Made by a program: the position numbers and the translations under genes. The notes beneath the pieces are model-generated. The model ran no database searches. It had not been told where the DNA came from and saw nothing but the letters and a program-made list of their open reading frames with translations. A DNA stretch of 64,000 nt. It comes from Eubacteriales bacterium. Its GTDB lineage: Bacteria; Bacillota; Clostridia; Oscillospirales; CAG-272. Of the stretch, positions 8,062-57,934 are shown one piece after another (the first letter of the stretch is position 1; each line of letters starts with the position of its first letter). The DNA is taken from NCBI GenBank assembly GCA_045594445.1, contig JAZNYL010000111.1, positions 10,087-74,086 on the forward strand, written 5' to 3'.

Positions 8062-8475
8062 CTTCTTGTTTCTCCTTAAAAATTAAATTATTTTTCGTAA
8101 GCTTATTAGCATGATCGGGTGTCATGCTAACGTGTGCAAGGCTTTTGCAAGTCTCGCGATTGGAACCCCTGTTTTTTCACAGGAGTCTCTTTTAGTAGTA
8201 ATCATGTGTTGCTAACTTTGATTATTTCGCACAAATTTGGCGAAAATTTCAAAATGCCCCCATGATTATTCCATTCTATTATACTTAAATAATTTTTTTT
8301 TACAATCCCCTTTTCACCAACGGGCGCGTTGCTTGCACGAAACGCCATTTTTGCGATCTCTACGATTATATATATCAGAATATCTCGTTATTATCTATAC
8401 CTATTATATGCCTTTTGACTTTTTGCGACGTCAAAGGGCACGCTTTCGGCAGGTCGGCTACAAGTCTTTTGGGGA

Positions 8476-17021: not shown

Positions 17022-18083
17022 TTAGTTTACGGGCAATACACTTGTTTGATATGCGGAAATCGAAAACTGCAACGGATATGCAACACGATAGGATTTCACT
17101 ACGTTACCGTCACTGTCCACGTCCACATACGTAATATTCATCACGGTAAGCAAATCATCAAAGTTCAGATCCTCTTTGGAAAAGCTTTCACCGTAATTTT
17201 GCTTCAAATGGTCAAGCAGCACTACCCAATGGATGACAAATTCCGTGCGCCAGCCAACCTGATTGTTAAATTCCTTGCGGACACCGTTATTGGTACGTGT
17301 GCCACCCATCACATCGAAGGAATCACCACCGTCCGAGGTGGCAAATCGGGTATTTTGAGTATCCTCTCCGTCAAAGGTCGCTCCCACGTAGATCACCCCA
17401 CGCGGATGCGGACCAAAAGAATACTGCACGGGTGCAGGCGCCCCTTCCTCTTGACCAAGTCCGCCAATATCCAATGAGATTGTAAAATGATCTCCGAGTG
17501 TTGGAAAACTATCTGAGTTGAACGAATTATCTTCAGATTCCACGAGCGTTTCATCATTGACCGCAAATGCAAAGTATACAAAGTTGGTGTCCGCAGCCAT
17601 GTACATGACAAAGCCGTCCTGCTCCGTCAACTCTCCTTGGTTGGCAACTAAATTGTTTTGATCAAAAACGTCGTGATAATATGCGCAATCAAGTTCCTGC
17701 CAGTCCTCTAACGTAATCGAATTCATCGGCAAAAGAAGCTTGATCGGAGCAGTATGATGGGGCAAAGCATTCAGCTCAAATCCTATGTCGGTATATACGG
17801 GCTCAGTTTCCGGGGGTGACGTGGTATTCCAAGCCGTACCGTATTCCGTTTCGATCTCATAAGGCGGCGTGGTCTGGATTTCAACCGTCCCCCAAGGCTC
17901 GATCGGATCGATCGCAACGTATTCCGATTCATATACGTCTACCGGTGGCTCAACGTAGCCGTAATCATATTCATTCCGAATGCCTTCAAACAGCTCGGCA
18001 ACAAGGCCGTTGCCCACGTCACAGGAGGTTAAGACCGTCATACAAAGCGCGGTCAGAAGTAAAATCGTGATCGTTTTTTTCAT
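17022..18083 (-). CDS. Acidic lipoprotein with a CBM9-like domain; paralogue 4 of 4
   Basis: Lipobox ...VLTS|CDVGNGLVAEL, then AIDPIEPWGTVEIQTTPP. The CBM9-like pattern is DGFVMYMAADTNFVYFAFAVNDETL...GDHFTISLDIGG...GWRTEFVIHW. Confidence 0.8.
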   Translation of the reverse strand: MKKTITILLLTALCMTVLTSCDVGNGLVAELFEGIRNEYDYGYVEPPVDVYESEYVAIDPIEPWGTVEIQTTPPYEIETEYGTAWNTTSPPETEPVYTDIGFELNALPHHTAPIKLLLPMNSITLEDWQELDCAYYHDVFDQNNLVANQGELTEQDGFVMYMAADTNFVYFAFAVNDETLVESEDNSFNSDSFPTLGDHFTISLDIGGLGQEEGAPAPVQYSFGPHPRGVIYVGATFDGEDTQNTRFATSDGGDSFDVMGGTRTNNGVRKEFNNQVGWRTEFVIHWVVLLDHLKQNYGESFSKEDLNFDDLLTVMNITYVDVDSDGNVVKSYRVAYPLQFSISAYQTSVLPVN

Positions 18084-27814: not shown

Positions 27815-29068
27815 TCAATCTGTCGCTGCGCTCTGTCCTGCTAAAAATCCCGTAGAAAACGCGATCTGCAAATTAAAGCCACCGGTATAAGCGTCCACGT
27901 CCAGCACCTCACCCGCAAAATAAAGCCCCGACACAAGGCGGGATTCCATGCTGGCAGGCTTGATCTGGCGCACGTCCACGCCACCCTTGGTCACAATGGC
28001 CTCGTCGATAGGCCGAAATCCGGTCAGCTTGACCGAAAAGCCCTTGAGCAGGGAGATCAGCGCACGGCGCTCCTCGGCCGTGACGGAATTGACCTTTTTT
28101 CGCGGATCAATGCCCGAGCGGGCAACCGCCACGTCAATCATTTTCTGCGGCAAAAGGTCGCCAAGGCTATTGACAAAATCCTTGTTCTGATATTTGGAAA
28201 AATCCGAAAGCAAGCGCGTGTCCAGCGTTTTTTCGTCCAGCGCGGGCTTGAGATCAATATAGGCTGTGTATTTTCCGGGCGCAATATCCGGCAGATGCGC
28301 AGATGCGCTCAGAATCATGGGACCGGTCAGGCCGAAATGCGTGAACATCATCTCGCCAAAATCGCGGTACACCGCCTTGCCGCTTGCGTTATCCTTGACG
28401 GTCAGACCCACGTTGCGCAAGGAAAGCCCCTGCATGGCGCGGCAATCCTTGTCCTCACAGGTGATAGGCACCAGCGAGGGGATCAGCCTTGTGACGTTGT
28501 GCCCTGCTCCGGCGGCAAGCTTGTAGCCGTCGCCGTCCGAACCGGTCAGCGGATAGGATTTGCCGCCCGTGCAAATAATCACGCGGTCAAACTCGTATTT
28601 TTTATCGGTGCAGAGACCGCAAACGCGATCGTTTTCAATCAGCAAGGAGCTCACTCTCTCGCACACGACCTTGACGCCCGCGTCAAGCACGGCACGCTTC
28701 ATGGCGTTGACCACGTCAATCGCCTTATCCGACACGGGAAACACGCGGTTGCCACGCTCAGTCTTGAGCGGCACGCCCAAATCCTCGAAAAAGGCCTTGG
28801 TATCCGCGGTGGAAAAGGCTGCCAGCGCACTGTAAAGAAAGCGCGGATTGGTGGGCACGTTGGACAAAAATTCATCCCTGCCACAATCGTTGGTCACGTT
28901 GCACCTGCCCTTGCCCGTAATGCGCAGCTTTTTGCCAAGGCGATCGTTTCGCTCAAACAAAGTGACCGCCGCGCCCATATTGGCGGCAGAAACCGCTGCC
29001 ATCATACCCGCAGCACCGCCGCCCACAACGGCGACGCGCACGGGAGAAAAATCACCGTATTCCATCAT
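27815..29068 (-). CDS. HI0933/BaiN-like NAD(P)/FAD-dependent oxidoreductase
   Basis: VAVVGGGAAGMMAA...GKKLRITGKGRCNVTN...GGKSYP are HI0933-family signatures. Confidence 0.85.
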   Translation of the reverse strand: MMEYGDFSPVRVAVVGGGAAGMMAAVSAANMGAAVTLFERNDRLGKKLRITGKGRCNVTNDCGRDEFLSNVPTNPRFLYSALAAFSTADTKAFFEDLGVPLKTERGNRVFPVSDKAIDVVNAMKRAVLDAGVKVVCERVSSLLIENDRVCGLCTDKKYEFDRVIICTGGKSYPLTGSDGDGYKLAAGAGHNVTRLIPSLVPITCEDKDCRAMQGLSLRNVGLTVKDNASGKAVYRDFGEMMFTHFGLTGPMILSASAHLPDIAPGKYTAYIDLKPALDEKTLDTRLLSDFSKYQNKDFVNSLGDLLPQKMIDVAVARSGIDPRKKVNSVTAEERRALISLLKGFSVKLTGFRPIDEAIVTKGGVDVRQIKPASMESRLVSGLYFAGEVLDVDAYTGGFNLQIAFSTGFLAGQSAATD

Positions 29069-29931
29069 TACTGCTGGGTTTTATCGTAAATGTCGTATTC
29101 GTCCCACAGCACCTCAAGGTGGCGAAGTCTCTCGGTCACCTGCTCCTGGCATACGCGGGAAACGGCTACGACAAGCGCGTTGATCACGCTCAAGGGGGCG
29201 ACCAGCGAATCCACGAAGGACGCCATATCGCTCTGCGCAACCAGCAGCTGGTCTGCGCTTGCGGCAAGCGGGGATTCCACGCTGTCGGTCAGGCAGATCA
29301 CGTCTGCACCGCTCTTGTGCGCGTACTCGGTTGCCTTGATGATTCTCTTGGAATATCTGGGGAAGCTGATGGCAATGACCACGTCGCCTTCACTCACGCC
29401 GATCATCTGCTCAAACACCTCAGCACCAGAGGCGGTCTGCACGCGGCGCACGTTGTCAAAGATCATACGCAGGCTGTGGTCGAGGAAGGACGCCAGCGAG
29501 GACGAGGAACGTACGCCCAAAATGTAGATATTCTTTGCGCCTACGATGCTGTTCACCGCTGCGTCAAACGCTTCGCGGTCAATGCCCTCCAGCGTTTTGC
29601 GGATCTTTTCGGCATCCGACTCCAGCACCTTGGAGAGCACGTCACCCTTACCAATCAGGTTATTGGTGACCTCGATGCGCTGGAAAGAGGTCAGCTTGGT
29701 GCGGATCAGCTCCTGCAGCGATTTCTGGAATTCGGGGTAGCCCTCGTATCCCAGTTCAATCACAAAGCGCACGACGGTGGACTCGGAAACGCCCACGGCG
29801 CAGCCGAGTTTGGAGGCGGTCATGTAGGCTGCCTTGTCGTATTCTTGCAAAATATATTTCGCAATCAGCTTTTGTCCCTTGGAAAAGCTGCTCATATTTT
29901 CTTCAAGAAGTCTTAAAATGTCTCTTTTCAT
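29068..29931 (-). CDS. MurR/RpiR-family transcriptional regulator (HTH + SIS domain)
   Basis: SKGQKLIAKYILQEYDKAAYMTASKLGCAVGVSESTVVRFV is an RpiR HTH, and the C-terminal part is a SIS domain. I chose the ATG at 29931 (AAGGAA RBS) rather than the track's TTG at 29955. Confidence 0.85.
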   Translation of the reverse strand: MKRDILRLLEENMSSFSKGQKLIAKYILQEYDKAAYMTASKLGCAVGVSESTVVRFVIELGYEGYPEFQKSLQELIRTKLTSFQRIEVTNNLIGKGDVLSKVLESDAEKIRKTLEGIDREAFDAAVNSIVGAKNIYILGVRSSSSLASFLDHSLRMIFDNVRRVQTASGAEVFEQMIGVSEGDVVIAISFPRYSKRIIKATEYAHKSGADVICLTDSVESPLAASADQLLVAQSDMASFVDSLVAPLSVINALVVAVSRVCQEQVTERLRHLEVLWDEYDIYDKTQQ

Positions 29932-30087
29932 AACAGATTTCCTTTCTGCCGTCAAGATTGGTGCTCAAAGAACGCCATTTTTCATTATACACCCATTCTC
30001 TTTTTGTGTCAAGGGTTTTTGCAAGTCTTTAGACGCAAAATTGCATTTTATCATTTCACAAATCTAATATTGGCGCCACATCTCAAA

Positions 30088-30334
30088 AAAAGTTTTCGCC
30101 CGCCTTTTTCAGAAAGGCATGGTGGCGTGTGAATATTGTTGTATTTTCAAGTGTTTTTGACGCCACCTGATGCTGAATTTCGGCAAAATTCAGCATCCAA
30201 AAGTTAACCGGCGCAGCCCTCGTCGCCTCCGCAGAGGCGAAACCTCTCTTACGCCGTTTCAATTCGCGCAGCGAATTACTGGTTCATTTTTTTGCGGCTA
30301 CTTGCTCAAAAAAAGAACGGAGATGGTTTTCTCA
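30088..30334 (+). repeat. Hairpin-rich intergenic repeat, copy A (full-length type with 5' module)
   Basis: It shares long identical blocks with 56038-56278 (AGTTTTCGCCCGCCTTTTTCAGAAA, GCATGGTGGCGTGTGAATATTG, CCCTCGTCGCCTCCGCAGAGGCG) and with 48727-48900. Confidence 0.8.
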
Positions 30335-30548
30335 GTGCAACAGAAAATACCCACCGCAAGCGCGGCGGGCATTTATACTAACTATCCCGGCAGTGTCGGC
30401 AACACTGGGAACGATTGCTCGGATGCATGACCAATTATTATTGAATTCACGCCTGACGGGACGTCGAGGGCGCCGTCCCCTGCAATCGGTGAAAACGCGT
30501 CACGCAAGGGGATCTCTTCATGTTTGCATTGTATTCATTCCGCACTCA

Positions 30549-31133
30549 TTATTCCGCGCGATTTCTCGCAAACTCACTGGCTAACATCGAATACGTCCCC
30601 ACCGTGCGATACGCGCCCTTGATCAGCATGGCCTCGCGTCTTTCGCCCTCAAATTTCATGCCCAGACGCTCCATGAGTCTGCAGGAGCGGTCGTTGCCCT
30701 TTAAGTACCTTGCCTCGATACGGTGCAGCTTGAGTGCGACAAAGCCAAAGCGCACCACCTCGGCAACCGCCTCGGTCGCATACCCTTTGCCTCCAAAGTC
30801 GGGGTGGAACACGTATCCGATCTCACCTGCGTCGTTGGGATAATCAAAGCGCGTAAAGCCGCAGGAACCAATCACTCTGCCGCTCGCCTTTTCCACCACG
30901 GCCCAGTCGAAATAGTCGCCCACGCTGTATCTCTGCCCGATATAGCGCAGATAATCCTGCGTGTACGCCACGCTTGTGTGCGGCGCCCAGGTCAGGTATT
31001 CGGTCACGTCAGAGCGGCAGGAATACGCGTAGATATCCTCCTTGTCCGTCACCAGCATCTTGCGCAGGATCAGGCGCTCGGTTTCAAGCGTGGGAATTTT
31101 TGAAAAGATTCGGTAGATGCTTTCCTTCTTCAT
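30549..31133 (-). CDS. GNAT-family N-acetyltransferase (RimJ/RimL-like)
   Basis: LETERLILRKM...IGYVFHPDFGGKGYATEA...HRIEARYLKGNDRSCRLMERLGMKFEG. I placed the start at the ATG at 31133 (AAGGAG RBS). Confidence 0.85.
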   Translation of the reverse strand: MKKESIYRIFSKIPTLETERLILRKMLVTDKEDIYAYSCRSDVTEYLTWAPHTSVAYTQDYLRYIGQRYSVGDYFDWAVVEKASGRVIGSCGFTRFDYPNDAGEIGYVFHPDFGGKGYATEAVAEVVRFGFVALKLHRIEARYLKGNDRSCRLMERLGMKFEGERREAMLIKGAYRTVGTYSMLASEFARNRAE

Positions 31134-31231
31134 GGGCAAAACTCCTTTGGTCGTCATATTCCCATTATAACGGATCATAAAGCCTTTTGCAAGAGTGTGG
31201 AAAAATTATTTGCAAAATATTACGGCTTTGC

Positions 31232-36546: not shown

Positions 36547-37833
36547 TTACTTTTTTTGATACGAATAACGTGAAATGGAAAGAATGATGCCCATCTCGAA
36601 GATCTGCAAGGCAAGCGCCGTACCGCCCGACGAGAAGAATGGCAGCGAAATGCCCGTATTAGGCATAGAATTGGTAACGACTGCGATGTTGAGCAGCGTT
36701 TGCAGCGCGACCTTGGTGGTCAGCCCGTAGACGGTCAGCGCGCAGAATTTGTCGGGAGCGTTTGCCGCGATTTTGTAGCCGCGCCATACCAGCATCACCA
36801 CAAGTCCCATCAGAATCAGCACGCCCAGCATGCCAAGCTCCTCGCAAAGGATTGTAAAGATAAAGTCGTTCTGCGGCTGCGATACGTAGCCGTATTTCTG
36901 CTGGCTCATGCCAAGGCCTCTGCCAAAAAATCCGCCAGAGCCGATGGCGTAAAGGCCTTGCAACGTTTGCCATGCCTCGCCAAGCGGGTCAACCTTGTCA
37001 ATGTTGATCCAGGTATCGATTCTCTGTCTTGCGTAATCGGATACCAGAAGCACGCCGCCAACCACCGTAACACCCGCGATACCGATCACACCAAACCATT
37101 GAAGCTTGGTGCCGCCAAGATACATGACCACGATGCCAAGCACACCCAGAATGATCAGACCGGACAGGTGCTTTTCCAGCATGACAAGACCGCAGATGAT
37201 GCCGATGATCACCACGGGACCCAGTACGCCGTAAGTAAAATGGCCTCCGAATTTCTGTACAGTATTTATCTGCTTTTGGTATTTTGACATAAACAGCGCA
37301 AGGAACATGATCAGCGCCATTTTTGCAATTTCGGAGGGCTGAATGGTAATGCTGCCGATCGCGATCCAACGGTTTGCACCGCCGAATACCGTACCGCTGA
37401 TCAGTACCGCCAAAAGCAGCACGACAGAGCCGCCGTACGCGCAAATGGCAAAGAATTTCCAGAACCAGGGGCGCGCCATGAGTACAAAGGGCGTTGTGGC
37501 AGCTATGGCCAGCACCAGATACATCACGTGCTTTTTGATAAAGTAGGTGGAATCTCCGTGGTACTGCGCTGCGTAGATCGAGCTTGCGCTGTACGCCATG
37601 ATCACGCCGTAAAGGATCAATCCCAGCACGATCAGGAAAAACCACACGTCAATACCGCCGCGCGTCAGCACGCCCGGCTCGGGCAGAGGCTCACCGTGAA
37701 TTTTTCTTTGATAGATCGGATCCTCCGGCTCTAAGATCGCATCCTGCTTTTGGTTGAAGCGGTCGGTCGCTTCCCCGCCCTTAAGGCGCAAAGCGCGCTT
37801 GAATCGCTCCCAATACACCCGATGCTTTTTCAC
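36547..37833 (-). CDS. ftsW: SEDS-family lipid II flippase/peptidoglycan polymerase FtsW/SpoVE
   Basis: About 10 TM segments, with the SEDS motifs IQPSEIAK and PNTGISLPFFSSGG. I placed the start at the GTG at 37833, directly after an AAAGGAGGTGAG RBS. Confidence 0.88.
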   Translation of the reverse strand: MKKHRVYWERFKRALRLKGGEATDRFNQKQDAILEPEDPIYQRKIHGEPLPEPGVLTRGGIDVWFFLIVLGLILYGVIMAYSASSIYAAQYHGDSTYFIKKHVMYLVLAIAATTPFVLMARPWFWKFFAICAYGGSVVLLLAVLISGTVFGGANRWIAIGSITIQPSEIAKMALIMFLALFMSKYQKQINTVQKFGGHFTYGVLGPVVIIGIICGLVMLEKHLSGLIILGVLGIVVMYLGGTKLQWFGVIGIAGVTVVGGVLLVSDYARQRIDTWINIDKVDPLGEAWQTLQGLYAIGSGGFFGRGLGMSQQKYGYVSQPQNDFIFTILCEELGMLGVLILMGLVVMLVWRGYKIAANAPDKFCALTVYGLTTKVALQTLLNIAVVTNSMPNTGISLPFFSSGGTALALQIFEMGIILSISRYSYQKK

Positions 37834-37874
37834 GGTCTCACCTCCTTTATAATCTGATTGGTTTGGTTTATCTC

Positions 37875-38918
37875 TTAAAACAGAACGGTCACAGCAGCCA
37901 CAGCGCACAAAAGCACCGTAACAAGGCTGAACACGACCACGATTTTGCGCTCGCTCCATCCACACTTTTCAAAGTGGTGGTGCAGGGGCGCCATTTTGAA
38001 CAGGCGCTTGCCATGCGTCAGCTTGAAATACAGGATCTGGAACAGGCTGGACAGCATTTCGACGATATACACAAAGCCCGCGATGATGACAGCGACCTCT
38101 ACGTGTGCCATGAACGCACAGCCCATCAGCACGCCGCCGATAAACAGCGATCCCGTATCTCCCATAAACACGCTTGCGGGATGGTGGTTATAGATCAAGA
38201 ACGCGCAAACCGCGCCAAGCAGCGCAGCCGCAACCGCACCCAGCATACCGTTGCTCACCAGCACGGCCATGATTGCCAAGAACAAAGCAACCACCGCGGT
38301 GATGCTGCTGGCAAGGCCGTCGATGCCGTCGGTCAGGTTGGTAGCGTTGACAAAGCCTGCGATCACGATGATATAGATGGGATACGCAATCCAGCCAAGC
38401 TCGATTGCAATCTCGGTAAACGGAATGGCAACGTCGGTATGCAGATTGCCCGTAATGGCCATCATGGCCACGTACGCAGCCGCAAACACCAGCTGCAAAA
38501 GCAGCTTTTGCCAAGCGGTCAAGCCCTGATTCTGCTTTTTGAGCAGCTTGCAATAATCGTCCACAAAGCCGATAGCGGCGTTAAAGACGCCAAGCAGCAG
38601 CGTAAGCGCAAGCGGAATGAGTGCCTTGGACTGCTCTGCGCCGCCCTTGATCAGAAACAGCACCGAGCCAATCGCCAGCACCAGCAAAAACGGCGGAATA
38701 AAGCCGATGCCGCCCATGGTGGGAGTGCCCTGCTTGCTCTCGTGCCACGCAGGTCCCAGCTCATAAATGGTCTGGCCGATCTTTTTGGCGCGCAGTACGG
38801 GAATCAAAAAACGCAGCACGATCGCGCTGATGCCGAATACGGCCACCGCCACGATCAAAGCCTCTGCCGCAATGGCGGCTTGCTCACTCATCTGTAACCC
38901 GAATAATCTCAAAAGCAT
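37875..38918 (-). CDS. mraY: Phospho-N-acetylmuramoyl-pentapeptide transferase
   Basis: PTMGGI...NATNLTDGIDGLA...FMGDTGSL...APLHHHFE are MraY signatures. Confidence 0.92.
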   Translation of the reverse strand: MLLRLFGLQMSEQAAIAAEALIVAVAVFGISAIVLRFLIPVLRAKKIGQTIYELGPAWHESKQGTPTMGGIGFIPPFLLVLAIGSVLFLIKGGAEQSKALIPLALTLLLGVFNAAIGFVDDYCKLLKKQNQGLTAWQKLLLQLVFAAAYVAMMAITGNLHTDVAIPFTEIAIELGWIAYPIYIIVIAGFVNATNLTDGIDGLASSITAVVALFLAIMAVLVSNGMLGAVAAALLGAVCAFLIYNHHPASVFMGDTGSLFIGGVLMGCAFMAHVEVAVIIAGFVYIVEMLSSLFQILYFKLTHGKRLFKMAPLHHHFEKCGWSERKIVVVFSLVTVLLCAVAAVTVLF

Positions 38919-40388: not shown

Positions 40389-41891
40389 CTATTGGTCTTT
40401 CGCGCCCTTGCGATATTGCGCCACCGCCTCTGTGACGATGGCCTTTTCGTCAAACGCAAGCCGCTGATCTTGCTTGATTTCATAGTTCTCGTGCCCCTTG
40501 CCGGCAAGCAGGATCACGTCGCCTCTTTTGGCATGGGCGATCACGTGCCTGATCGCCTCGCGTCTGTCCTGTATGACGCGATAGTGCGAGCGTCGGTCAA
40601 CGCCCTTGAGAATATCCGCTATGATGTCCGACGTGGGCTCCGTACGGCTGTTATCCGCCGTGATCACCACGTAATCGGCGTAGCGCGAGGCAATCTGCCC
40701 CATTTGTGCGCGCTTGCCGCGATCGCGGTCTCCTCCGCAGCCAAACACCAGCACCACGCGCTGAGCGCGCTTTTTCAGGCCATGCACGGCACGCAGCAAA
40801 CTCTCCAGCGCGTCCGGCGTATGCGCGTAATCGATCAGCACCGAAAAATCCGCGTCGGCAGGCAGGCAAAGGCGCTCCATTCTGCCCGGTACGGGTGGTA
40901 CCGAGGGCATGCCATCCTTGATTTTCTGCGCCTTGACGCCAAGCAGCATCGCTGCCGCCACCGCCTCTACCGAATTGATCACCGAAAACCGACCGCCAAA
41001 GGAGCAGGCGATGCGCACGCGTGCGTTGGGAGAGACCAGATTGTACTTGACGCCCGAAAAGCTTACGCTGACCTCTTGGGCATAAAAATCTGCGTGCGTG
41101 CTTGCAGCCGAGCAGGTATACGTACCGCCCTGCCGACAGGTGCGCAGCGTTGCCAGTTTTGCATCGTCCACGTTGAGCAGCACGCGCTCGCTTTGCTCCA
41201 GCAGCTTTTTCTTGGCCGCAAAGTAGGCCTCGGGGCTGCCGTGAAAATCCAGATGATCCCGCGTGACGTTGGTAAAAATGCCAAGGTCAAATCGAATGGG
41301 GGCGCACCGCTCCATACAAAGCGCGTGCGAGGTGACCTCCATGACCACGATCTCGGTTCCCTGCGCTGCCAGCTCGGCCAGCATGGGATACAGCACCTCG
41401 GGATCGGGTGTGGTCATATTGGCGGCCGTGCGCTCGTCCTTTGGAAAGATGCCCGCAGGCCCCTCGCACTTGACCGTACCGATCAGCGCGCAGGGGATTT
41501 GCGCGTAACGCAAAAGCTCATACAGCATCCATGACACCGAGGTTTTGCCGTTGGTGCCCGTCACGCCCACGAATTTCATTTTGGACGAGGGTTTTTCGCA
41601 CCATGCGTCCATCAGATACGCAACGGCTGCGCGCGTATCCTCGGCGCGGATCGTGCATAGTCCTTGAGGGATTTCGCCCGCATAGTCCTCTGCGATCACG
41701 GCCGCGCACGCGCCTCTCTTGGCTGCGTCGCCAAGATAAGCGTGGCCGTCCGTCTTGGTTCCCTTCAGGCAGACAAACAGCTGTCCTGCCGTCAGCTTCC
41801 GGGAATCGGTGCAGATGCCGGATACCTTGATCCGCTCTGCACCTGCGGGATGCTTCAATCCCGCTGCTTCACATAAAGTAGAAAGAATCAT
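40389..41891 (-). CDS. murE: UDP-N-acetylmuramoyl-L-alanyl-D-glutamate--2,6-diaminopimelate ligase (dcw-cluster MurE, DNSR variant retaining the Arg)
   Basis: VTGTNGKTSVS is the P-loop. DNSR sits at the DNPR position. The gene lies between pbp and murF. Confidence 0.9.
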   Translation of the reverse strand: MILSTLCEAAGLKHPAGAERIKVSGICTDSRKLTAGQLFVCLKGTKTDGHAYLGDAAKRGACAAVIAEDYAGEIPQGLCTIRAEDTRAAVAYLMDAWCEKPSSKMKFVGVTGTNGKTSVSWMLYELLRYAQIPCALIGTVKCEGPAGIFPKDERTAANMTTPDPEVLYPMLAELAAQGTEIVVMEVTSHALCMERCAPIRFDLGIFTNVTRDHLDFHGSPEAYFAAKKKLLEQSERVLLNVDDAKLATLRTCRQGGTYTCSAASTHADFYAQEVSVSFSGVKYNLVSPNARVRIACSFGGRFSVINSVEAVAAAMLLGVKAQKIKDGMPSVPPVPGRMERLCLPADADFSVLIDYAHTPDALESLLRAVHGLKKRAQRVVLVFGCGGDRDRGKRAQMGQIASRYADYVVITADNSRTEPTSDIIADILKGVDRRSHYRVIQDRREAIRHVIAHAKRGDVILLAGKGHENYEIKQDQRLAFDEKAIVTEAVAQYRKGAKDQ

Positions 41892-47172: not shown

Positions 47173-48621
47173 TCATCGTTTCCCGGATGCATGGATATCA
47201 CTTTGCTTTTTGCGTCTGACAAGCAGCGTCAGCAGCGCGCGGCCATCAAACGGGATGAGCGGATAGAGATACTGCCGCTTACCGTTGACGGTTTTGTTGG
47301 TGGCCAACAGCACGAGTATGAGCACCACACCGATGCCGTAGCCCCAGACGTTGCCGATTGCGGTCAGGATCAAAAGTCCAATGCGCAAAAACTTGAAGGC
47401 GTAGCCAAGCTCGTAGGATCTTTGCGTAAAGGTGGCAATGGCCACGAACGCCATATACAGAATGACCTCGGGGATCAGCCAGCCGATGCCCACCGCGAAA
47501 TCGCCCAGGATCAAGCCGCCCACGACGGAAAGCGAATTGGAAAGCATGCTGGGCGTATTGAGCGAGGCCATGCGCAGTCCGTCAATGATAAACTCGGTCA
47601 GAAGCAGCTGCGCGATCAAGGGGATGCGCCCTTGTTCCTGCGGAATGATAAACGCAAGCCACTCGGGCACGACGGACGCATTGGAGACCAGGAGATACCA
47701 CGTGGGTACCAAAAACAGCGACAAGGCGAACACGATATAGCGGATGACGCGGATATACGTGCCGGTCAGCGGGGTAAAATAATAGTCATTGGTCTCTTGC
47801 ATGAAGTCGAAAATGCTGACGGGCAGGATCATGACCTGCGGAGAATTATCGCAAAAGATCAGCACGCTTCCCTCCAGCACCTGCGCGGCTGCGGTGTCGG
47901 GACGCTCGGTGTAGCGCACCTTGGGAAAGGGGTTATACCAACGCGTTTTGATCAAGCATTCGGAAAGCGACTGATGCCCCAGTGTCAGCGCGTCGGTATC
48001 AATGGCCGTCAGTCTTTTTTCCAGCATCCGAACGTATTCGGGATTGGCCTTTCCGCTAAGATAGCAAAGCACGACGTCGGTTTTGGAGCGTCGGCCAATG
48101 GAAAAATACCGCATGGTCAGCTGCGTGTCGCGCACGCGGCGGCGCAGAAGCGCGGTATTGAAGATCAGCGTTTCCACAAAGCCGTCGCGCGAGCCGACCA
48201 TGACGCGGTCGCCCTCGGGCTCCTCGGTCGAGCGTGCGGGATAGGTGCGCGCATCCACGATGATGGCCTCTGGGCCAAAGGCAGAGCCGAGAATGAGCGA
48301 GGCGCCTGAGAGCACCATCTGGATCATAAGGTCAATATTGCCGGTGGTTTCGGCCTCCACGTGCGGCACGTTGTATTCGAGGAACCGCTCTGCCGAGGAT
48401 TTTTGCCCGTCCGGCGGCGTTTGCATGCTATCCAGCGAGAGAAAATGCATCATCAGCTTTTGCATGGGAGTTGCGTTCACAAAGCCGTCGATATAGTAAA
48501 GCGTCATTTCGTCAGGCCCTATGCGCAGCACCTTACGAATGATATCAAAGTTGTCGTCGGGATGCAAGAGGCTATCTACGGTAGCCACGTTGACCCGATA
48601 GTTTTCACCCAGTTTACCCAT
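47173..48621 (-). CDS. Spore germination protein, GerA/SpoVAF family (A-subunit type)
   Basis: FDIIRKVLRIGPDEMTLYYIDGFVN...RSTEEPEGDRVMVGSRDGFVETL...LLRRRV, with a C-terminal 4-5 TM domain. This is the GerAA/SpoVAF architecture. Confidence 0.8.
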   Translation of the reverse strand: MGKLGENYRVNVATVDSLLHPDDNFDIIRKVLRIGPDEMTLYYIDGFVNATPMQKLMMHFLSLDSMQTPPDGQKSSAERFLEYNVPHVEAETTGNIDLMIQMVLSGASLILGSAFGPEAIIVDARTYPARSTEEPEGDRVMVGSRDGFVETLIFNTALLRRRVRDTQLTMRYFSIGRRSKTDVVLCYLSGKANPEYVRMLEKRLTAIDTDALTLGHQSLSECLIKTRWYNPFPKVRYTERPDTAAAQVLEGSVLIFCDNSPQVMILPVSIFDFMQETNDYYFTPLTGTYIRVIRYIVFALSLFLVPTWYLLVSNASVVPEWLAFIIPQEQGRIPLIAQLLLTEFIIDGLRMASLNTPSMLSNSLSVVGGLILGDFAVGIGWLIPEVILYMAFVAIATFTQRSYELGYAFKFLRIGLLILTAIGNVWGYGIGVVLILVLLATNKTVNGKRQYLYPLIPFDGRALLTLLVRRKKQSDIHASGKR

Positions 48622-48726: not shown

Positions 48727-48900
48727 GATGAAAGTTTGAGTCGAGCCTTTTCAAAGGCTCGCACGGGTCGAGGGCGTGAAGACCTCGTCGCCTCAGCAGA
48801 GGCGAAATACTTTTCTCGCCGTTTCAATTCGCGCAGCGAATTACCGGTTCATTTTTTTGCGCCTACTTGCTCAAAGAAAGAACAGAAACGGTTTTCTCAC
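48727..48900 (+). repeat. Hairpin-rich intergenic repeat, copy B-left
   Basis: It aligns with 30200-30334 and 56150-56278, and as an inverted copy with 48994-49157. Confidence 0.8.
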
Positions 48901-48950
48901 ATAATAAACCAACAGCCGTAGGGTGGGGGCTTGCTCCCGCAGTACAAAAC

Positions 48951-48987
48951 AAAAAGGAAGCTACTTTACGTAAGTAACTTCCTTTTT
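48951..48987 (-). terminator. Central stem-loop terminator between the inverted repeat arms (ends the SDR transcript)
   Basis: AAAAA GGAAGCTACT TTACGTA AGTAACTTCC TTTTT pairs at 9 of 10 stem positions, with A and T runs on either side. Confidence 0.65.
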
Positions 48988-48993
48988 CTTTAC

Positions 48994-49157
48994 ATTGAAC
49001 AAACTCTCTCCGTTCTTTTTTGTGCAAGTAGGCGCAAAAGAAGAACATATTTGCTTCGCAAATTTAAACGCCGTTTTAGAATGTTTCGCGCCTGCGGGCG
49101 CGACAAGGGCGCTGCCCTTGACCTGCGAGCCTTTGAAAAGGCTTGATCCAAACTTCC
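48994..49157 (-). repeat. Hairpin-rich intergenic repeat, copy B-right (inverted)
   Basis: Its reverse complement aligns with the B-left, A and C arms, including the blocks TTGCGCCTACTTGC, AAGAACGGAGA and GCCTTTTCAAAGGCTCG. Confidence 0.8.
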
Positions 49158-49185: not shown

Positions 49186-49950
49186 TTAACCGTCTAATTT
49201 CTGCTGATTACACCAGATCTTCATGACCATCTTGGTGGGCAGCAGCCACGCCAAGAATCTCGCTCTGCGAATGGCGTGCCCGCAAACAGAGACGTCCTTG
49301 CCCTTCTTCATATCCTTGAGCGCTCTGGTCACTACCTGCTCTGCGGTATAATATCTCGCGTAATACTTAATCGTATCGTCGGTCACCGCGTGGTCAAAGA
49401 ACTCAGTCTTTACCCAACCGGGGCAAATGGCCATGACGCGGATGCCCCTGCTTTTCAGCTCTACGTTCAGCGATCTTGAAAAGCTGAGCACGAACGCCTT
49501 GGTTGCACCGTACACACCGATATACGGCACGGGCTGGAAGGCCGATTGGCTGTCGATCTGATAGATCTGTCCGCCCTTCTTCATATAGGGCAGCGTCAGA
49601 TACGTCATGCTCATCAAAGCGCTTGCGTTGAGCGTAATCATGCGCTCCTGCGCCTCCAGATCAATATCGGTAAACGCACCGAATCTGCCAAATCCGCTGC
49701 CGTTGACCAACACCGCCACGTCGGGGCGGTGCTCTTCAAGCAGCGTCTTGTATGCATCCAACGACTCCCTTTGGCACAGATCCAGCGCAATGGCTCTGAC
49801 GCGGGCACGCGTCTGCTTGCCGATCTCAAGGAGTCTGTCCTCGCGGCGCGCGATCAACCAAAGCTCGTCAAATTCCTGCTGCGCATCCAGCTGCAGCACG
49901 AATTCCTTCCCCATACCGGACGACGCGCCCGTAATGACTGCTATTCTCAT
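49186..49950 (-). CDS. SDR-family oxidoreductase
   Basis: MRIAVITGASSGMGKEF is the TGxxxGxG motif, and YGATKAF is the catalytic YxxxK. Confidence 0.85.
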   Translation of the reverse strand: MRIAVITGASSGMGKEFVLQLDAQQEFDELWLIARREDRLLEIGKQTRARVRAIALDLCQRESLDAYKTLLEEHRPDVAVLVNGSGFGRFGAFTDIDLEAQERMITLNASALMSMTYLTLPYMKKGGQIYQIDSQSAFQPVPYIGVYGATKAFVLSFSRSLNVELKSRGIRVMAICPGWVKTEFFDHAVTDDTIKYYARYYTAEQVVTRALKDMKKGKDVSVCGHAIRRARFLAWLLPTKMVMKIWCNQQKLDG

Positions 49951-54336: not shown

Positions 54337-55974
54337 GTGACTCTCTTGCAAGAGAACAAAGACAACAAGCCGGACGAGCTTGAAGAGAACCGAAACCCAA
54401 GCACATACCAACAAGAACCACCCGCTCCCCGACAGTGTGAGGATGAAGACGAGCAAGAGAGAGCCGAGCGCGCTCTGGACGAGCAGTTTGAGCGCGAGGA
54501 GCAGGAACAGGAGCGCGAGGTTGAGCAGGACGAGCAGGCTCTGGCCGAGGACGAAATGCCCGACTCCTACGAGGAGATCATCGAGGACACCTTCGAGAGC
54601 TTGGAAGATCTGCTTGACAATAAAAAATACGCCGATTTCGTGCGCGAACTGGAAAAGCTCAACCCGATTGACGCCGCAGATTTCTTTGAAAATCTGCCTC
54701 CCAAGCGAATTCCCGCCGTGTTCCGTCTGCTCAAAAAGGACAGCGCGGCAGAAGTTTTTGCCGAGCTGGACGTACCTATTCAGGAGCGCATCATCTCTGC
54801 TATGACCGACCGAGAGATTTCGGTCATCGTGGAAGACTTGTTCCTTGACGACGCGGTTGACATGCTTTCCGAAATGCCTGCCAACATCGTGCGCCGCATC
54901 AAAAAGAACACCACGCCCGAAACACGTGCACAGATCAACAGGTTGCTTGCCTACCCCGAGGACAGTGCGGGCAGCGTCATGACCTCTGAGTTTGTTGACC
55001 TGCGCAAATCCATGACGGTTTCCGAGGCCATCAAGCACATCAGACAGACCGGTATTGACAAGGAAACCGTATACACCGCCTACGTGGTGGACGACCGCCG
55101 CATTCTGGAGGGCATCGTATCCTTCAAGGATCTGCTGTTCTCTCCCCGTGACGCTCTGATCGGCGACATTATGGAGCCCAACATCATTTACGCAAACACG
55201 CTGGACGACCAGGAAACGGTTGCCGACATCATTGCAAAGTATAACCTGCTCTCGCTGCCCATCGTGGACCGTGAGTTGCGCCTTGTGGGTATCGTAACCG
55301 TCGACGACGCTTTGGACGTCCTGGAAGAAGAAACCACCGAGGACATTGAAAAAATGGCGGCAATTTTGCCGACCGACAAGCCCTATATGCGTACGGGCGT
55401 TTGGGAAAACTTTACCAAGCGTATCCCGTGGCTGCTGCTTCTGATGCTGACCGCGACCTTTACGGGCACCATCATCACCATGCTGGAGGGCAAGATCGAC
55501 GCGTTGGACTTCCCGCTGGTGCTTTCCCTTTCTGCGTTTATCCCCATGCTGATGAGCACGGGCGGTAACGCAGGCGGACAGTCGTCTGTTACGGTCATTC
55601 GTGCGCTCTCGCTGGGCGAGATTGAGCCCAAGGACATTTTGCGCGTGGTCTGGAAGGAGCTGCGTATCGCATGCCTGTGCGGCTTGACGGTATTCGTTGC
55701 ATGCTTTGTAAAGACTTGGGCGATCGACTGCAAGTTCCACACCGAGCCGGAGTATCTCATGATCGCGTTGGCGGTCAGTGCGACCGTATTTGTGGCCATC
55801 GTGCTGGCAAAGCTGATCGGTGCGATGCTGCCGATCGGTGCGAAGGTGATCAAGCTTGACCCGTCGGTCATGGCATCGCCGTTTATTACGACCATTGTGG
55901 ACACGCTGACGCTGTTGGTCTATTTTCTGATCGTCATTTACCTGCTGGTGCCCCAGATGGCAGCGGTGATGTAA
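54337..55974 (+). CDS. mgtE: Magnesium transporter MgtE (with a possible ~73-aa hyper-acidic N-terminal extension; alternative start ATG 54556)
   Basis: MgtE N-domain, tandem CBS domains and a 5-TM domain (DDAVDMLSEM, PIVD...LVGIVTVDDALDV, GGNAGGQS). The start is uncertain: a GTG at 54337 with a weak RBS, or the ATG at 54556 preceded by GAGGA. Confidence 0.88.
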   Translation: MTLLQENKDNKPDELEENRNPSTYQQEPPAPRQCEDEDEQERAERALDEQFEREEQEQEREVEQDEQALAEDEMPDSYEEIIEDTFESLEDLLDNKKYADFVRELEKLNPIDAADFFENLPPKRIPAVFRLLKKDSAAEVFAELDVPIQERIISAMTDREISVIVEDLFLDDAVDMLSEMPANIVRRIKKNTTPETRAQINRLLAYPEDSAGSVMTSEFVDLRKSMTVSEAIKHIRQTGIDKETVYTAYVVDDRRILEGIVSFKDLLFSPRDALIGDIMEPNIIYANTLDDQETVADIIAKYNLLSLPIVDRELRLVGIVTVDDALDVLEEETTEDIEKMAAILPTDKPYMRTGVWENFTKRIPWLLLLMLTATFTGTIITMLEGKIDALDFPLVLSLSAFIPMLMSTGGNAGGQSSVTVIRALSLGEIEPKDILRVVWKELRIACLCGLTVFVACFVKTWAIDCKFHTEPEYLMIALAVSATVFVAIVLAKLIGAMLPIGAKVIKLDPSVMASPFITTIVDTLTLLVYFLIVIYLLVPQMAAVM

Positions 55975-56037
55975 GCAATTGCTCTCACAAAGCGAAGAAT
56001 TGTGTAACGCCCGCCACCATACGGACGGCCCACTCAC

Positions 56038-56278
56038 GAAAGTTTTCGCCCGCCTTTTTCAGAAAAGCATGGTGGCGTGTGAATATTGCCGATATTTCGA
56101 GTGTGATTGACGCCACCCGATGTTGAATTTCTGCGAAATTCAACATCCAAAAGGCAACCGGCAACGCCCTCGTCGCCTCCGCAGAGGCGGAACTTTTCCA
56201 CGCTGTTTAATTTGCGAAGCAAATATGTTCTTCTTTGCAGCTCCTTGCTCAAAAAGAACGGAAACGATTTTCTCACAT
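56038..56278 (+). repeat. Hairpin-rich intergenic repeat, copy C-left (full-length type with 5' module)
   Basis: It is colinear with copy A at 30088-30334. Differences cluster as paired changes in the stems. Confidence 0.8.
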
Positions 56279-56288
56279 AAACAAAAAA

Positions 56289-56315
56289 GGGAGTTACCTA
56301 TGCAAGGTAGCTCCC
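56289..56315. terminator. Central bidirectional stem-loop terminator between convergent mgtE and the oxidoreductase gene
   Basis: GGGAGTTACCT ATGCA AGGTAGCTCCC is an 11-bp stem with one mismatch, flanked by AAAAAA and TTAGTTTTT. Confidence 0.7.
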
Positions 56316-56326
56316 TTAGTTTTTGC

Positions 56327-56483
56327 GTTGAGATAATCCTCTCCGTTCTTTTTCTTGGCTATGTAGCCGCAAGAAAAAGAACCAAAAAGAACGGCGATAG
56401 AAGTGTTTCGCGCCTGCGGGCGCGACGAGGGCTTCGCGCCCTCGACCTGCGCAAACTTTTGAAAAAGTTTGATCAAAACTTTT
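56327..56483 (-). repeat. Hairpin-rich intergenic repeat, copy C-right (inverted)
   Basis: Its reverse complement aligns with the B-left and B-right arms, including the blocks GGTCGAGGGCG.GAAG.CCTCGTCGC, GCGAAAC, TTGCGGCTAC and AAGAACGGAGAG. Confidence 0.8.
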
Positions 56484-56508
56484 ATCCTGTAAAGGTCATC
56501 CGCGCGTT

Positions 56509-57894
56509 TTACGCGTTCACTTCCCTGCCTGTGATCTTATCTGCGACGTAAATGCCCATGGCGCCGCTCTGCGACAAGCCTCTGGTAATGCCGCTGCCGT
56601 CACCGATCAGGTATACGCCGTCCATGATCTCAAAGTTCTCGTTATGTCTGGGTCTGATCGAATAGTACTTATTCTCACAGCCGTACAGCAGCGTGTCGTC
56701 GTTTGCACAGCCGGGCGCAACCTTATCCAGCGCATAAATCGTCTCGATAATGTTGGTCAGTGCTCTGTAAGGCATCACCACGCTCAAATCTCCCGGGAAT
56801 GCCTGCAGCGTCGGTCTGACCGTGCTCTGCGACAGTCTGTGCGCGTTGGTTCTTCTGCCTCTGATCAGGTCACCGAATCTCTGCACCATGATGTTGCCCT
56901 CTGCTGCAAAGTTGGTGTTTCTTGCAATGTTCTCGGCATACTCGGTGGGCTTTTGGAAGTCGCCGTCAAAGTGAATGGACGACAAAATTGCAAAGTTGCA
57001 GTTATCGGTCTTCTTCTCGGGCTGCGCGTACGAGTGGCCGTTTGCGGTAATCACGCCGTGGTTATTCTCTGCCGATACAAGCCCGCCCTGATTGAAGCAG
57101 AACATTCTGGTTCTGTCCTCAAACGTCTTGGTGCGGTACAGAATCTTGGGCTCGTAGATCTGCGACGAGAATTCGCGCCAGATAATGTCCTTCATTTCCA
57201 CGCGCACGCCGATGTCCACCGAATTGGAATCCATACGGATGCCAAACTTCTTGCAGGTGCGGATCACGAAATCCGAGCCGCTGCGGCCTGTGGAAATCAC
57301 GATTCTGGCAGCCTGCAGCACCTCTGCCTCACCGCTGCCTCTTTTTTGTGTAACGGCATAGCAACCGTCCTGTTTGTCAATCTCAAGCACCTCTGTCAGG
57401 TCTCTCATCTCCACGCCCTTTTCCTCAAGCGCATCGATCAGGCTCTGCATGGTGGCAAAGTTCTTGTCCGTTCCAAGATGGCGCACATTCATGTCCAAAA
57501 GTCGCAAATTGTTCTGCAGACACTTCAGCTTGAGCTCCTCGTTGGAATGGTACATGGGCGGATAATCATCGGCAAATTGCTCCAGAATGCTATCCACCTG
57601 GTTGATATAGTACATAGCAAGGTCTTCTCCAAGCTCCTCGCCCATCGTGCCGCCGTATGCGGTACCCAAATTGAATTTACCGTCCGAAAATGCACCTGCA
57701 CCGGCATATCCGCTGGTAATGCTGCACACCTTGCAGTGAATGCACTTCTGGTTCTTTCCTGCGGGGCAATGACGCTTGGACAGAGAAAGTCCCTTCTCAA
57801 TTATTACGATTTTCTGTTCGGGATTGTTGACGATTGCACGGTATGCAGCCATCAGGCCACCGATGCCACCGCCGATTATTGCTATATCATACAT
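56509..57894 (-). CDS. FAD-dependent oxidoreductase (COG2509-like uncharacterised dehydrogenase)
   Basis: MYDIAIIGGGIGGLMAAYRA is a dinucleotide-binding motif, and the C-terminal block is LIGDGSGITRGLSQS. I placed the start at the ATG at 57894 (GGAGA RBS) instead of the track's TTG at 57909. Confidence 0.8.
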   Translation of the reverse strand: MYDIAIIGGGIGGLMAAYRAIVNNPEQKIVIIEKGLSLSKRHCPAGKNQKCIHCKVCSITSGYAGAGAFSDGKFNLGTAYGGTMGEELGEDLAMYYINQVDSILEQFADDYPPMYHSNEELKLKCLQNNLRLLDMNVRHLGTDKNFATMQSLIDALEEKGVEMRDLTEVLEIDKQDGCYAVTQKRGSGEAEVLQAARIVISTGRSGSDFVIRTCKKFGIRMDSNSVDIGVRVEMKDIIWREFSSQIYEPKILYRTKTFEDRTRMFCFNQGGLVSAENNHGVITANGHSYAQPEKKTDNCNFAILSSIHFDGDFQKPTEYAENIARNTNFAAEGNIMVQRFGDLIRGRRTNAHRLSQSTVRPTLQAFPGDLSVVMPYRALTNIIETIYALDKVAPGCANDDTLLYGCENKYYSIRPRHNENFEIMDGVYLIGDGSGITRGLSQSGAMGIYVADKITGREVNA

Positions 57895-57934
57895 GGTTGT
57901 ATTCTCCAAAATAAAAATCTGTAAGCGCGAAAAT

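Follow-up and report, generated by a model that had tools for sequence, protein, structure and literature searches.

We describe a previously uncatalogued, multi-copy, non-coding repeat family of Oscillospiraceae-type gut Clostridia, found in a stretch of 64,000 nucleotides from an Eubacteriales bacterium (assembly GCA_045594445.1, contig JAZNYL010000111.1, positions 10,087 to 74,086; hereafter the window). Five copies of the repeat, which we term arms, lie at three intergenic sites in the window (A, B and C). Across the family the arms occur in many distinct stem variants, which shows that hairpin formation is maintained by compensatory change, whichever molecule the hairpins form in. On balance, we consider it probable that the repeats are a new mosaic of DNA-level hairpin modules – similar in kind to bacterial interspersed mosaic elements (BIMEs) and repetitive extragenic palindromic (REP) sequences, or to miniature inverted-repeat transposable elements (MITEs) – that are recognised in trans, spread or homogenised by recombination, and tolerated, probably even used, as two-way terminators and as 3′-end hairpins between genes. 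The usual unit is an imperfect palindrome of ~300–520 bp, in which two inverted arms flank a centre that in most cases contains an intrinsic terminator working in both directions.

Five arms at three intergenic sites

The initial annotation of the window claimed five colinear arms at three intergenic sites, and these were recovered, in number and in place, by repeat search, by alignment and by counting a core motif. The core block CCTYGTCGCNNCNGCAGNNGCGRAA is present in five copies compared to 0.00 in 100 dinucleotide shuffles, and AAAGAACRGARA in eight copies where shuffling gives an expectation of 1.05. Direct repeat family D2 connects 30089–30248 with 56039–56198 (86% identity) and D3 connects 30215–30334 with 48780–48899 (88%); the three sites are further linked by direct family D10 and by the inverted pairs I1, I3–I9 and I11. 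MAFFT places the five arms in a single colinear alignment, and within the window the likeness spans 120–260 nt at 86–88%. The repeat families, the colinear alignment and the shuffle counts thus indicate that the arms are real and far beyond chance.

Read from the outside inwards, an arm (150–250 nt) comprises an optional hairpin (hp0), a start motif, the hairpins hp1, hp1b and hp2, an optional hp3, a stem designated P4, and a tail. hp0 (CCGCCACCATACGG...CACGGAT) is found 13–20 nt upstream of 23 of 98 arms, compared to 1.5% by chance; at L036 (L numbers designate individual loci or contigs) two to three truncated hp0-like units stand in tandem. The start motif GAAAGTTTT comes after the hp0 position, where the consensus order lists AAAGTTTT. 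The centre of hp1, CTTTTTCAAAAG, is fixed and its outer stem is free, taking at least six forms (CAAAC/GTTTG, CGCCCGCC/GGCGGCG, CGAGC/GCTCG, GCGTCGC/GCGAC, CGACC/GGTCG and CCACG/GGTGG). hp1b reads CGAGGGC-loop-GCCCTCG, and hp2 reads TCGC-NNN-C-CGCA-G-NNN-GCGA followed by AAC (consensus GTCGC-NN-CCGCAG-NN-GCGAAAC); hp3, where present, is either AATTCGC-GCA-GCGAATT or ATTTGC-GAA-GCAAAT. P4 pairs GTTCTTTTT with AAAAAGAAC – a T-run with an A-run – around a small variable hairpin, and the tail is GGAGAG..TTTTCTCA (consensus AAAGAACGGAGA..TCTCA). The unpaired motifs between hairpins are conserved across arms. Loops are often GAA, GCA, AGA or AGC triloops closed by C-G, which in DNA form very stable mini-hairpins.

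Arms A (30088–30334, plus strand; nhmmer 188 bits) and C-left (56038–56278, plus strand; 155 bits) are of a long-module type. That these two have an extra 5′ module in common, while the remaining three arms open with another hairpin, had been noted at the outset and is confirmed by MAFFT and by reading of the sequence. The module is a nested block of ~90 nt with two hairpins of its own; where it is present, hp1 lacks its 3′ half and hp1b its 5′ half, the module standing in their place. Arm A runs from its AAAGTTTT start and the 5′ half of hp1 through the nested module, which sits in the hp1 loop (30112–30198, plus strand; hairpins GGTGGCGT...ACGCCACC and ATGCTGAATTT/AAATTCAGCAT), then through hp2 (30223–30240), hp3 (30262–30278) and P4 to a tail ending TTTTCTCA. 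The corresponding module of C-left occupies ~56062–56148, with hp2 at 56173–56190. The junction TTTTTCA/GAAA(A/G)GCATGGTGGCG (the first slash marks the join) is identical in nine copies whose hp1 5′ halves differ, and it always falls inside the hp1 loop. The short-type arms are B-left (48727–48900, plus strand; 192 bits) and B-right (48994–49157, minus strand; 158 bits), both with hp3, and C-right (56327–56490, minus strand; 155 bits), which lacks hp3 and has an RNA fold of −65.5 kcal/mol (z −5.45). All five arms are also supported by the repeat search and the alignment.

The positions first assigned to the arms hold, although their extents required revision: the arms of B and C are halves of convergent inverted pairs, and C-left reaches ~30 nt further upstream, where an outer, optional hp0 module (CGCCCGCCACCATACGGACGGCCCACTCAC; 56009–56037, plus strand) appears to repeat the arm start in tandem and in truncated form. 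At the centre of pair B is a REP-like hairpin module of the GTAGGG type (CGTAGGGTGGGGGCTTGCTCCCGCA; 48916–48941, plus strand), followed by a bidirectional terminator hairpin (AAAAAGGAAGYTACTT...AAGTARCTTCCTTTTT; 48951–48987; 16 pairs and a T-run). The centre of pair C holds a bidirectional terminator hairpin, AAGGGAGTTACCTATGCAAGGTAGCTCCCTT, found by terminator scan at 56287–56317 and bordered by an A-run and a T-run. Both are terminator-like on either strand; they are homologous, with compensated differences, and that of pair C is also central to pairs at L078, L036, L066, L002, L104 and L033. To the right of arm A, a minus-strand stretch resembling only the hp1b-hp2 region (30446–30487; nhmmer 6.9 bits, profile positions 51–92) may be the weak vestige of a decayed partner, in which case all three sites may once have been pairs.

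A family of gut Clostridia

Scanning 185,579 species-representative genomes with a core pattern containing hp2 returned at least 118 loci, around which blocks of 8 kb were analysed; the sequence examined came to 1.3 Mb in all. With a profile built from the five window arms, nhmmer recognised at least 176 arms in these loci, with E-values down to 1e-57. Among the matches listed, the hosts are nearly all metagenome-assembled genomes (MAGs) from gut and rumen, classified as Oscillospiraceae, Ruminococcus sp., Eubacteriales, Clostridia, Candidatus Avispirillum and Faecalibacterium sp. CAG:74; eight listed loci from other phyla had no profile match and are chance matches to the pattern. Collections of phage and plasmid records yielded no match to the family, and IMG/VR yielded only five, all at the level of hp2. 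A search of the literature returned nothing specific on repeats of this kind in the host taxa.

Where a locus has more than one arm, a plus arm is in most cases followed by a minus arm across a gap of 10–80 nt, an arrangement seen at 29 or more sites, with the AAAGTTT termini of the pairs 305–521 bp apart. Solo and tandem arms are nonetheless common. The centre of a pair is in its minimal form 54 nt long and devoid of a terminator; a 99-nt form carries a GGGAGYTACC...GGTARCTCCC hairpin between an A-run and a T-run, and centres of 140–270 nt have additional CGTAGGG-hairpin units. The two arms of a pair are often less like each other than like arms at other sites, and paired arms show no consistent a/b polarity (ab 3, ba 3, bb 3).

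A second subfamily, of larger elements, has in common only the outer ~100 nt (hp1, hp1b and hp2). Its elements, of 570–750 bp, are palindromic throughout and 69–76% identical to one another; at L087 the inverted ends are near-perfect over 100 nt. Open reading frames (ORFs) inside the elements, including those of this large subfamily, are interrupted by stop codons in homologues. The two ORFs first remarked upon in the window differ, in accord with the original assessment that the arms encode no consistent ORF.

In Faecalibacterium sp. CAG:74 and in five viral contigs, only the hp1b-hp2 double hairpin is common to the family. One of the viral contigs of IMG/VR, L205, contains two copies (7180–7500 and 9050–9380) of a ~330-nt repeat that opens with this double hairpin; the copies occupy two intergenic gaps in a phage late operon, one behind the terminase and one behind the portal gene, and run antisense to the genes, and the unit is also present in Faecalibacterium sp. 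CAG:74 (L059). A separate variant of ~500 nt occurs four times in a rabbit-gut Clostridia MAG (L022 6503–7018, L032 2333–2827, L072 5750–6135 and L097 3337–3808; 84–96% identical). In this variant hp2-hp1b-hp1 units (one, or two in tandem) are accompanied by a CGTAG...CTACG unit as well as by a long perfect palindrome. The flanking genes are co-directional, and relative to them the copies occur either way round; the 71-nt loop of the palindrome is inverted (flip/flop) in L022 compared to the other three.

Compensatory change in the stems

That the hairpins are kept as structure and not as sequence is evident from an alignment (A6) of 78 non-identical 5′ domains drawn from both subfamilies. Pairing stands at 93% for hp1, 90% for hp1b and 96.5% for hp2, the last figure being partly built in, since the loci were gathered through the hp2 pattern. 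Double-sided changes occupy 250 cells compared to 91.5 ± 9.5 in shuffles (a count reached in none of 500), a control whose leniency is taken up below; sliding the partner by one to three columns leaves 15–50. The covariation score is 0.308 versus 0.121. For 47 full arms, RNAalifold reports double-sided changes in nine of 17 predicted pairs, including those of a long-range helix, P3, which exists as GCCG/CGGC, GGCG/CGCC and GCTG/CAGC and is complementary in 43 of 46 arms. P3 overlaps P4, such that the two are either pseudoknot-like or mutually exclusive.

Two further helices were considered and set aside as support. P4 is mostly invariant, with GTAC/GTAC in only three arms. A closing helix, P0, is paired in only 54% in a fixed register; it appears better, albeit unproven, in the large subfamily (AGTTTAGG/CCTAAACT).

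Sites, occupancy and turnover

The repeats favour convergent gene ends. No fewer than 132 of 137 sites are intergenic, the other five overlapping a called gene, and convergent genes flank 34 of 78 sites (44%) versus 68 of 491 in the background (14%). Genes in the window were called by codon score after training on genes called in a conspecific contig, some being checked with Pfam; the caller missed ftsW (36547–37965) and murE (40389–41891), and the intergenic statistics therefore carry some error.

Turnover within sites is striking. Two contigs encoding an SDR protein identical to that beside pair B in the window carry an altered pair B. In the conspecific sequence the central hairpin is another one, the GTAGGG module is missing (L119 and L120), and another short variant takes the place of B-left; in B-right the inner stem of hp2 has undergone a fully compensated swap, from GCGCC/GGCGC to GCTCGT/ACGAGC. 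In three other species loci B and C have flanking proteins that are 94–98% identical, and module content differs. At locus C the left arm carries the long module in the window and the right arm carries it in L066; L078 and L036 lack it. The parts retained by the window and L066 are ~98% identical. Locus A spans 537 nt in the window; in a metagenome contig whose RpiR protein is 93% identical it spans 72 nt and holds another terminator. A 90% relative has another neighbour gene and no arm, and none of 80 RpiR loci has an arm. Some sites are thus consistently occupied and others only in some genomes, and turnover within a site is far faster than that of its flanks. Copies differ through shuffling, nesting and replacement of modules, even where near-identical strains share a locus, which points to exchange of patches among copies by recombination or gene conversion.

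Next to arm A, the 175-nt spacer between the stop of the GNAT gene and the hairpin by the arm (30373–30548) has no counterpart in the related species L121 and holds a decayed hp1b-hp2-like stretch; the spacer appears to be the product of wholesale replacement and not of a clean insertion. The conspecific contig L119 ends in an arm (1–140) downstream of MgtE that is a short variant versus the window's long type, and the repeat probably breaks short-read assemblies.

DNA or RNA

A central issue is the level at which constraint acts. The 5′ hairpins are 94% Watson-Crick, and their mismatches on the arm strand (21 G.T versus 34 A.C) reveal no excess of G.U. The 5′ domain folds at −38.1 kcal/mol antisense and −37.1 kcal/mol sense, antisense being the better in 52 arms versus 26. 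Folded whole as single-stranded DNA, pair B reaches −117 kcal/mol (z −12.4 versus shuffles). Several arms begin directly behind the T-run of a host terminator.

By consensus scan, neither the arms nor the sequence ahead of them contains a promoter-like site. The promoter-like TTCAGA/TGTGAATAT reported in A and C-left is indeed there, but it escaped the consensus scan and is not conserved, the same position reading TGTGAATGT or TGTGAATGC in six further long-module copies from other loci. Because the motif is not conserved, the proposal of a small RNA (sRNA) family with its own promoter has no support for the family as a whole; transcription as 3′ untranslated or read-through RNA may nonetheless occur. 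The statement that the repeat belongs to no Rfam family stands: neither the window nor 17 related loci have a match at gathering score, with noise only at E ≤ 10 around locus C. No tRNA or tmRNA origin was found in the window. A terminator is present in most pairs but not in all.

The broader suggestion of a MITE- or REP-like DNA element has fared well as regards its mosaic build across many genomes, inverted pairs, swapped and nested modules, one site that is occupied or empty depending on the species, want of a conserved promoter and 5′ hairpins free of G.U bias, and poorly as regards a plain MITE, neither a target-site duplication nor a parent element having been seen. Constraint would act upon DNA hairpins, single-stranded or cruciform, bound by a trans-acting protein, for which a tyrosine transposase of the REP-associated (RAYT) or IS200-like type encoded elsewhere would be the most likely candidate; constraint on one specific transcript would be improbable. 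The host would tolerate, or make use of, repeats that end transcription from both sides and leave stable hairpins at the 3′ ends of mRNAs.

A search for the machinery of movement in the sequences examined returned nothing. Clustering of 1842 ORFs from the loci showed enrichment only of ABC ATPases. An IS200 TnpA probe gave only matches of E > 2, the one in the window falling inside ftsW. The gene between distant arms in L046, considered as an autonomous parent, is a glycoside-hydrolase-like ORF and not a transposase. No autonomous insertion sequence (IS) with the same termini was found among the 118 loci listed, in the 1.3 Mb, or in phage or plasmid collections. The ends of the elements are ragged, with hp0 units optional, truncated or reiterated.

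Competing explanations

Several observations weigh against a DNA element mobilised in trans. The 3′ domain folds better on the arm strand (−21.3 versus −17.5 kcal/mol; 43 arms versus 4) and has 131 G.U pairs there versus 21, which is what constraint at the level of a transcript would give, even if this bias owes much to a T-run opposite a purine run; as a test for RNA, G.U asymmetry was discarded, the 5′ and 3′ domains contradicting each other. In 71% of the cases in which the 5′ end of an arm faces a gene, that gene reads into the arm. Every related genome examined has loci B and C occupied, a pattern that a conserved functional element would show too, and at the sole 'empty' site the spacer has been replaced, as opposed to cleanly excised or inserted. 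The flanks of 17 pairs revealed neither target-site duplications nor sharp ends. Copies are kin and exchange whole modules, so that both halves of a stem move together and the shuffle control overstates independent covariation. Finally, as no transposase, RAYT or IS200-like gene was found in the 1.3 Mb examined, mobilisation is something that we purely infer.

The arms might instead be structured RNAs, transcribed in the direction of the arm, either as the 3′ untranslated region of a gene that reads in or as an independent sRNA, ending at the shared central terminator and acting through a three-hairpin junction together with a long hairpin or pseudoknot. Strong covariation of stems alongside fixed loops and joining motifs would suit such a molecule, as would the three compensated variants of P3 in a pseudoknot or switch topology with P4, the steadier and G.U-richer 3′ domain, the co-orientation of gene-facing arms with their genes, the terminator that follows the arm tail in most pairs, and the low folding energy of C-right. 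Yet there is neither promoter nor Rfam match; A and B-left face away from the adjoining gene, several arms sit behind a host terminator, and the arms occur in both orientations relative to flanking genes. The 5′ hairpins have no G.U excess, minimal pairs dispense with the terminator, and module content at one locus varies between strains, unlike that of a conserved RNA gene. A DNA-level explanation is likely the better of the two, and we regard RNA as unlikely, though by no means negligible. A related and somewhat more doubtful proposition is that the arm is a selected nucleic-acid fold representing a new class of element: a three-hairpin junction closed by AAAGT/ACTTT, followed by the overlapping P3 and P4 as a possible pseudoknot or switch. 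Such a fold could be a multi-copy structured RNA made at gene ends, or else a palindrome without transposase for which the central terminator hairpin primes the synthesis of new copies; the latter would account for whole-length palindromes, the flipped loop and truncated outer ends. A classic MITE – the deletion derivative of an IS, cut and pasted by a DDE transposase acting on terminal inverted repeats and leaving target-site duplications – has in its favour the long inverted ends, a length of 300–520 bp without ORF, high copy number, intergenic sites and copies 84–96% identical in one genome, all of which fit the published definition (PMC3184786). We judge it improbable, given that direct repeats are missing around the 17 pairs, that ends are ragged with respect to hp0, that solo and tandem arms are common, that no transposase-bearing relative was seen among the 118 loci listed (only ABC ATPases being enriched), and that phage and plasmid collections hold no match. 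As to mere convergence of terminators and GC-rich hairpins, or chance in low-complexity sequence with no homologous family, the shared parts do include simple ones, namely T-runs, A-runs and short GC hairpins, and the eight non-Firmicute matches are indeed chance; but the length and identity of the colinear blocks, the nhmmer E-values, the conserved unpaired motifs and an expectation of zero cores in shuffles refute it.

Relation to known repeats

The closest known parallels include the REPs and BIMEs of Proteobacteria. For these, a bias toward convergent genes, effects on mRNA stability and termination, and a link to RAYTs have been described (PMC3184786, PMC5581495); RAYTs are single-copy, vertically inherited and flanked by their own repeats, and group 1 RAYTs occur in Clostridia (PMC5581495). 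Here we follow the definitions of REP/BIME and MITE given in PMC3184786. As with REPs, BIMEs and REPINs, our repeats are extragenic, multi-copy and without an internal transposase. Short GC-rich hairpins alternate in orientation, with conserved linkers and in mosaic combinations – hp1b and hp2 are 6–7-bp GC-rich hairpins, 90–96% paired – and the bias to convergent gene ends, the ties to termination and mRNA 3′ ends, and long persistence at a locus are common to both; the extra central modules even possess a GTAG-type 5′ motif. The differences are nevertheless considerable. Our arms are far longer (150–250 nt), with four to six different hairpins plus AT-rich stems, the main arms lack the GTAG motif, and the host belongs to the Clostridia. 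No resemblance to REPs of enterobacteria or pseudomonads was apparent, as judged by eye only, and no RAYT gene was found in the 8-kb blocks around matches.

MITEs such as RUP of S. pneumoniae, Correia of Neisseria and ERIC are likewise non-coding, intergenic and numerous, a few hundred bp long, with inverted ends and long stem-loop folding (PMC3184786). The present repeats differ in their ragged modular ends, their solo and tandem arms, the lack of direct repeats at the 17 pairs and the absence of any parent IS from the sequences examined. BOX elements of Streptococcus pneumoniae are similarly modular (boxA-B-C) with variable module number, whereas our repeats bear no sequence relation to BOX or SPRITE, are much larger, are palindromic as a whole and belong to another host clade. 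Palindrome-associated transposable elements (PATEs), derived from IS200/IS605, are moved in trans by a small HUH/Y1 transposase and generate no target duplications. The latter trait is common to our repeats, as would be movement in trans and a function that rests on subterminal DNA hairpins and not on coding capacity. In contrast to our inverted arms, the left and right ends of PATEs differ; nor was an IS200-like TnpA found here in 1.3 Mb, or a fixed target tetranucleotide shown. A likeness of hp2 to the type I-C CRISPR repeat was rejected: hp2 is never arrayed, lacks the ATTGAAA(C/T) handle and forms no spaced repeats in the sequences examined.

Much is known of interspersed mosaic repeats in Proteobacteria and streptococci, but in the Clostridia that dominate the gut, most of them uncultured, such repeats have scarcely been described. 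The present family is dense (three sites per 64 kb) and strain-variable. By supplying or surrounding two-way terminators its members shape transcription units; they make for recombination hot spots and strain-level intergenic variation, and may break metagenome assemblies. With a catalogued model, thousands of MAGs would be better annotated; such a model would also furnish strain markers and point toward the protein presumed to recognise the conserved hairpins. Interest is moderate unless the fold, or copying without transposase, proves central.

Genes and other features of the window

Arm A has on one side the stop of a GNAT gene (30549–31178, minus strand) and on the other the promoter – a perfect TTGACA-17-TATAAT – of an RpiR gene (29068–29955, minus strand); exact-protein look-ups for the genes adjoining the arm found nothing on record. 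Adjoining the tail of the arm is the hairpin CCCACCGCAAGCGCGGCGGG (30350–30369), with one stem mismatch, which was read from the sequence and went unflagged by the consensus scan; together with the TATTTTCT that follows on the minus strand it is likely to be the terminator of the GNAT gene. Pair B occupies the space between the start of a GerA-like gene (47173–48621, minus strand) and the stop of the SDR gene (49186–49950, minus strand). Pair C stands between convergent genes for MgtE (54337–55974, plus strand) and a FAD-dependent protein (56509–57909, minus strand).

A REP-like repeat also occurs away from the arms. Within the ORF 11466–12665 (minus strand), positions 12215–12304 comprise two tandem 45-nt units, 93% identical, each consisting of CGTAGGG, a hairpin and CCGCA, and of the same kind as the centre of pair B. 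As both units, at 15 codons each, keep the reading frame of the called gene around them, a repeat of the CGTAGGG type may have been taken up into coding sequence. In all, the CGTAGGG-hairpin pattern is found three times in the window versus 0.06 expected.

The remaining features concern genes alone. The segment 33197–46861 is a cluster for cell division and the cell wall (dcw), beginning with MraZ and a methyltransferase (in synteny with L119) and continuing with ORFs similar to penicillin-binding protein, MurE, MurF, MraY, FtsW and MurG. An ORF of 1804 amino acids (1445–6859, minus strand) contains tandem 138-nt repeats (1983–2522; three copies, 63–87%) and a repeat spaced at 102 nt (1457–1633), and looks like a repeat-domain surface protein. 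Adjacent minus-strand genes have common 5′ ends (7994–8082 and 8903–8994) encoding NNKGFSLVELIVVIAIMAVL, which we take to be the N-terminal motif of type IV pilin-like proteins. Between 14845 and 18099, repeats of 42–117 nt (D4, D5 and D7) join three minus-strand genes (14969–15760, 15772–17001 and 17022–18083) that are tandem paralogues.

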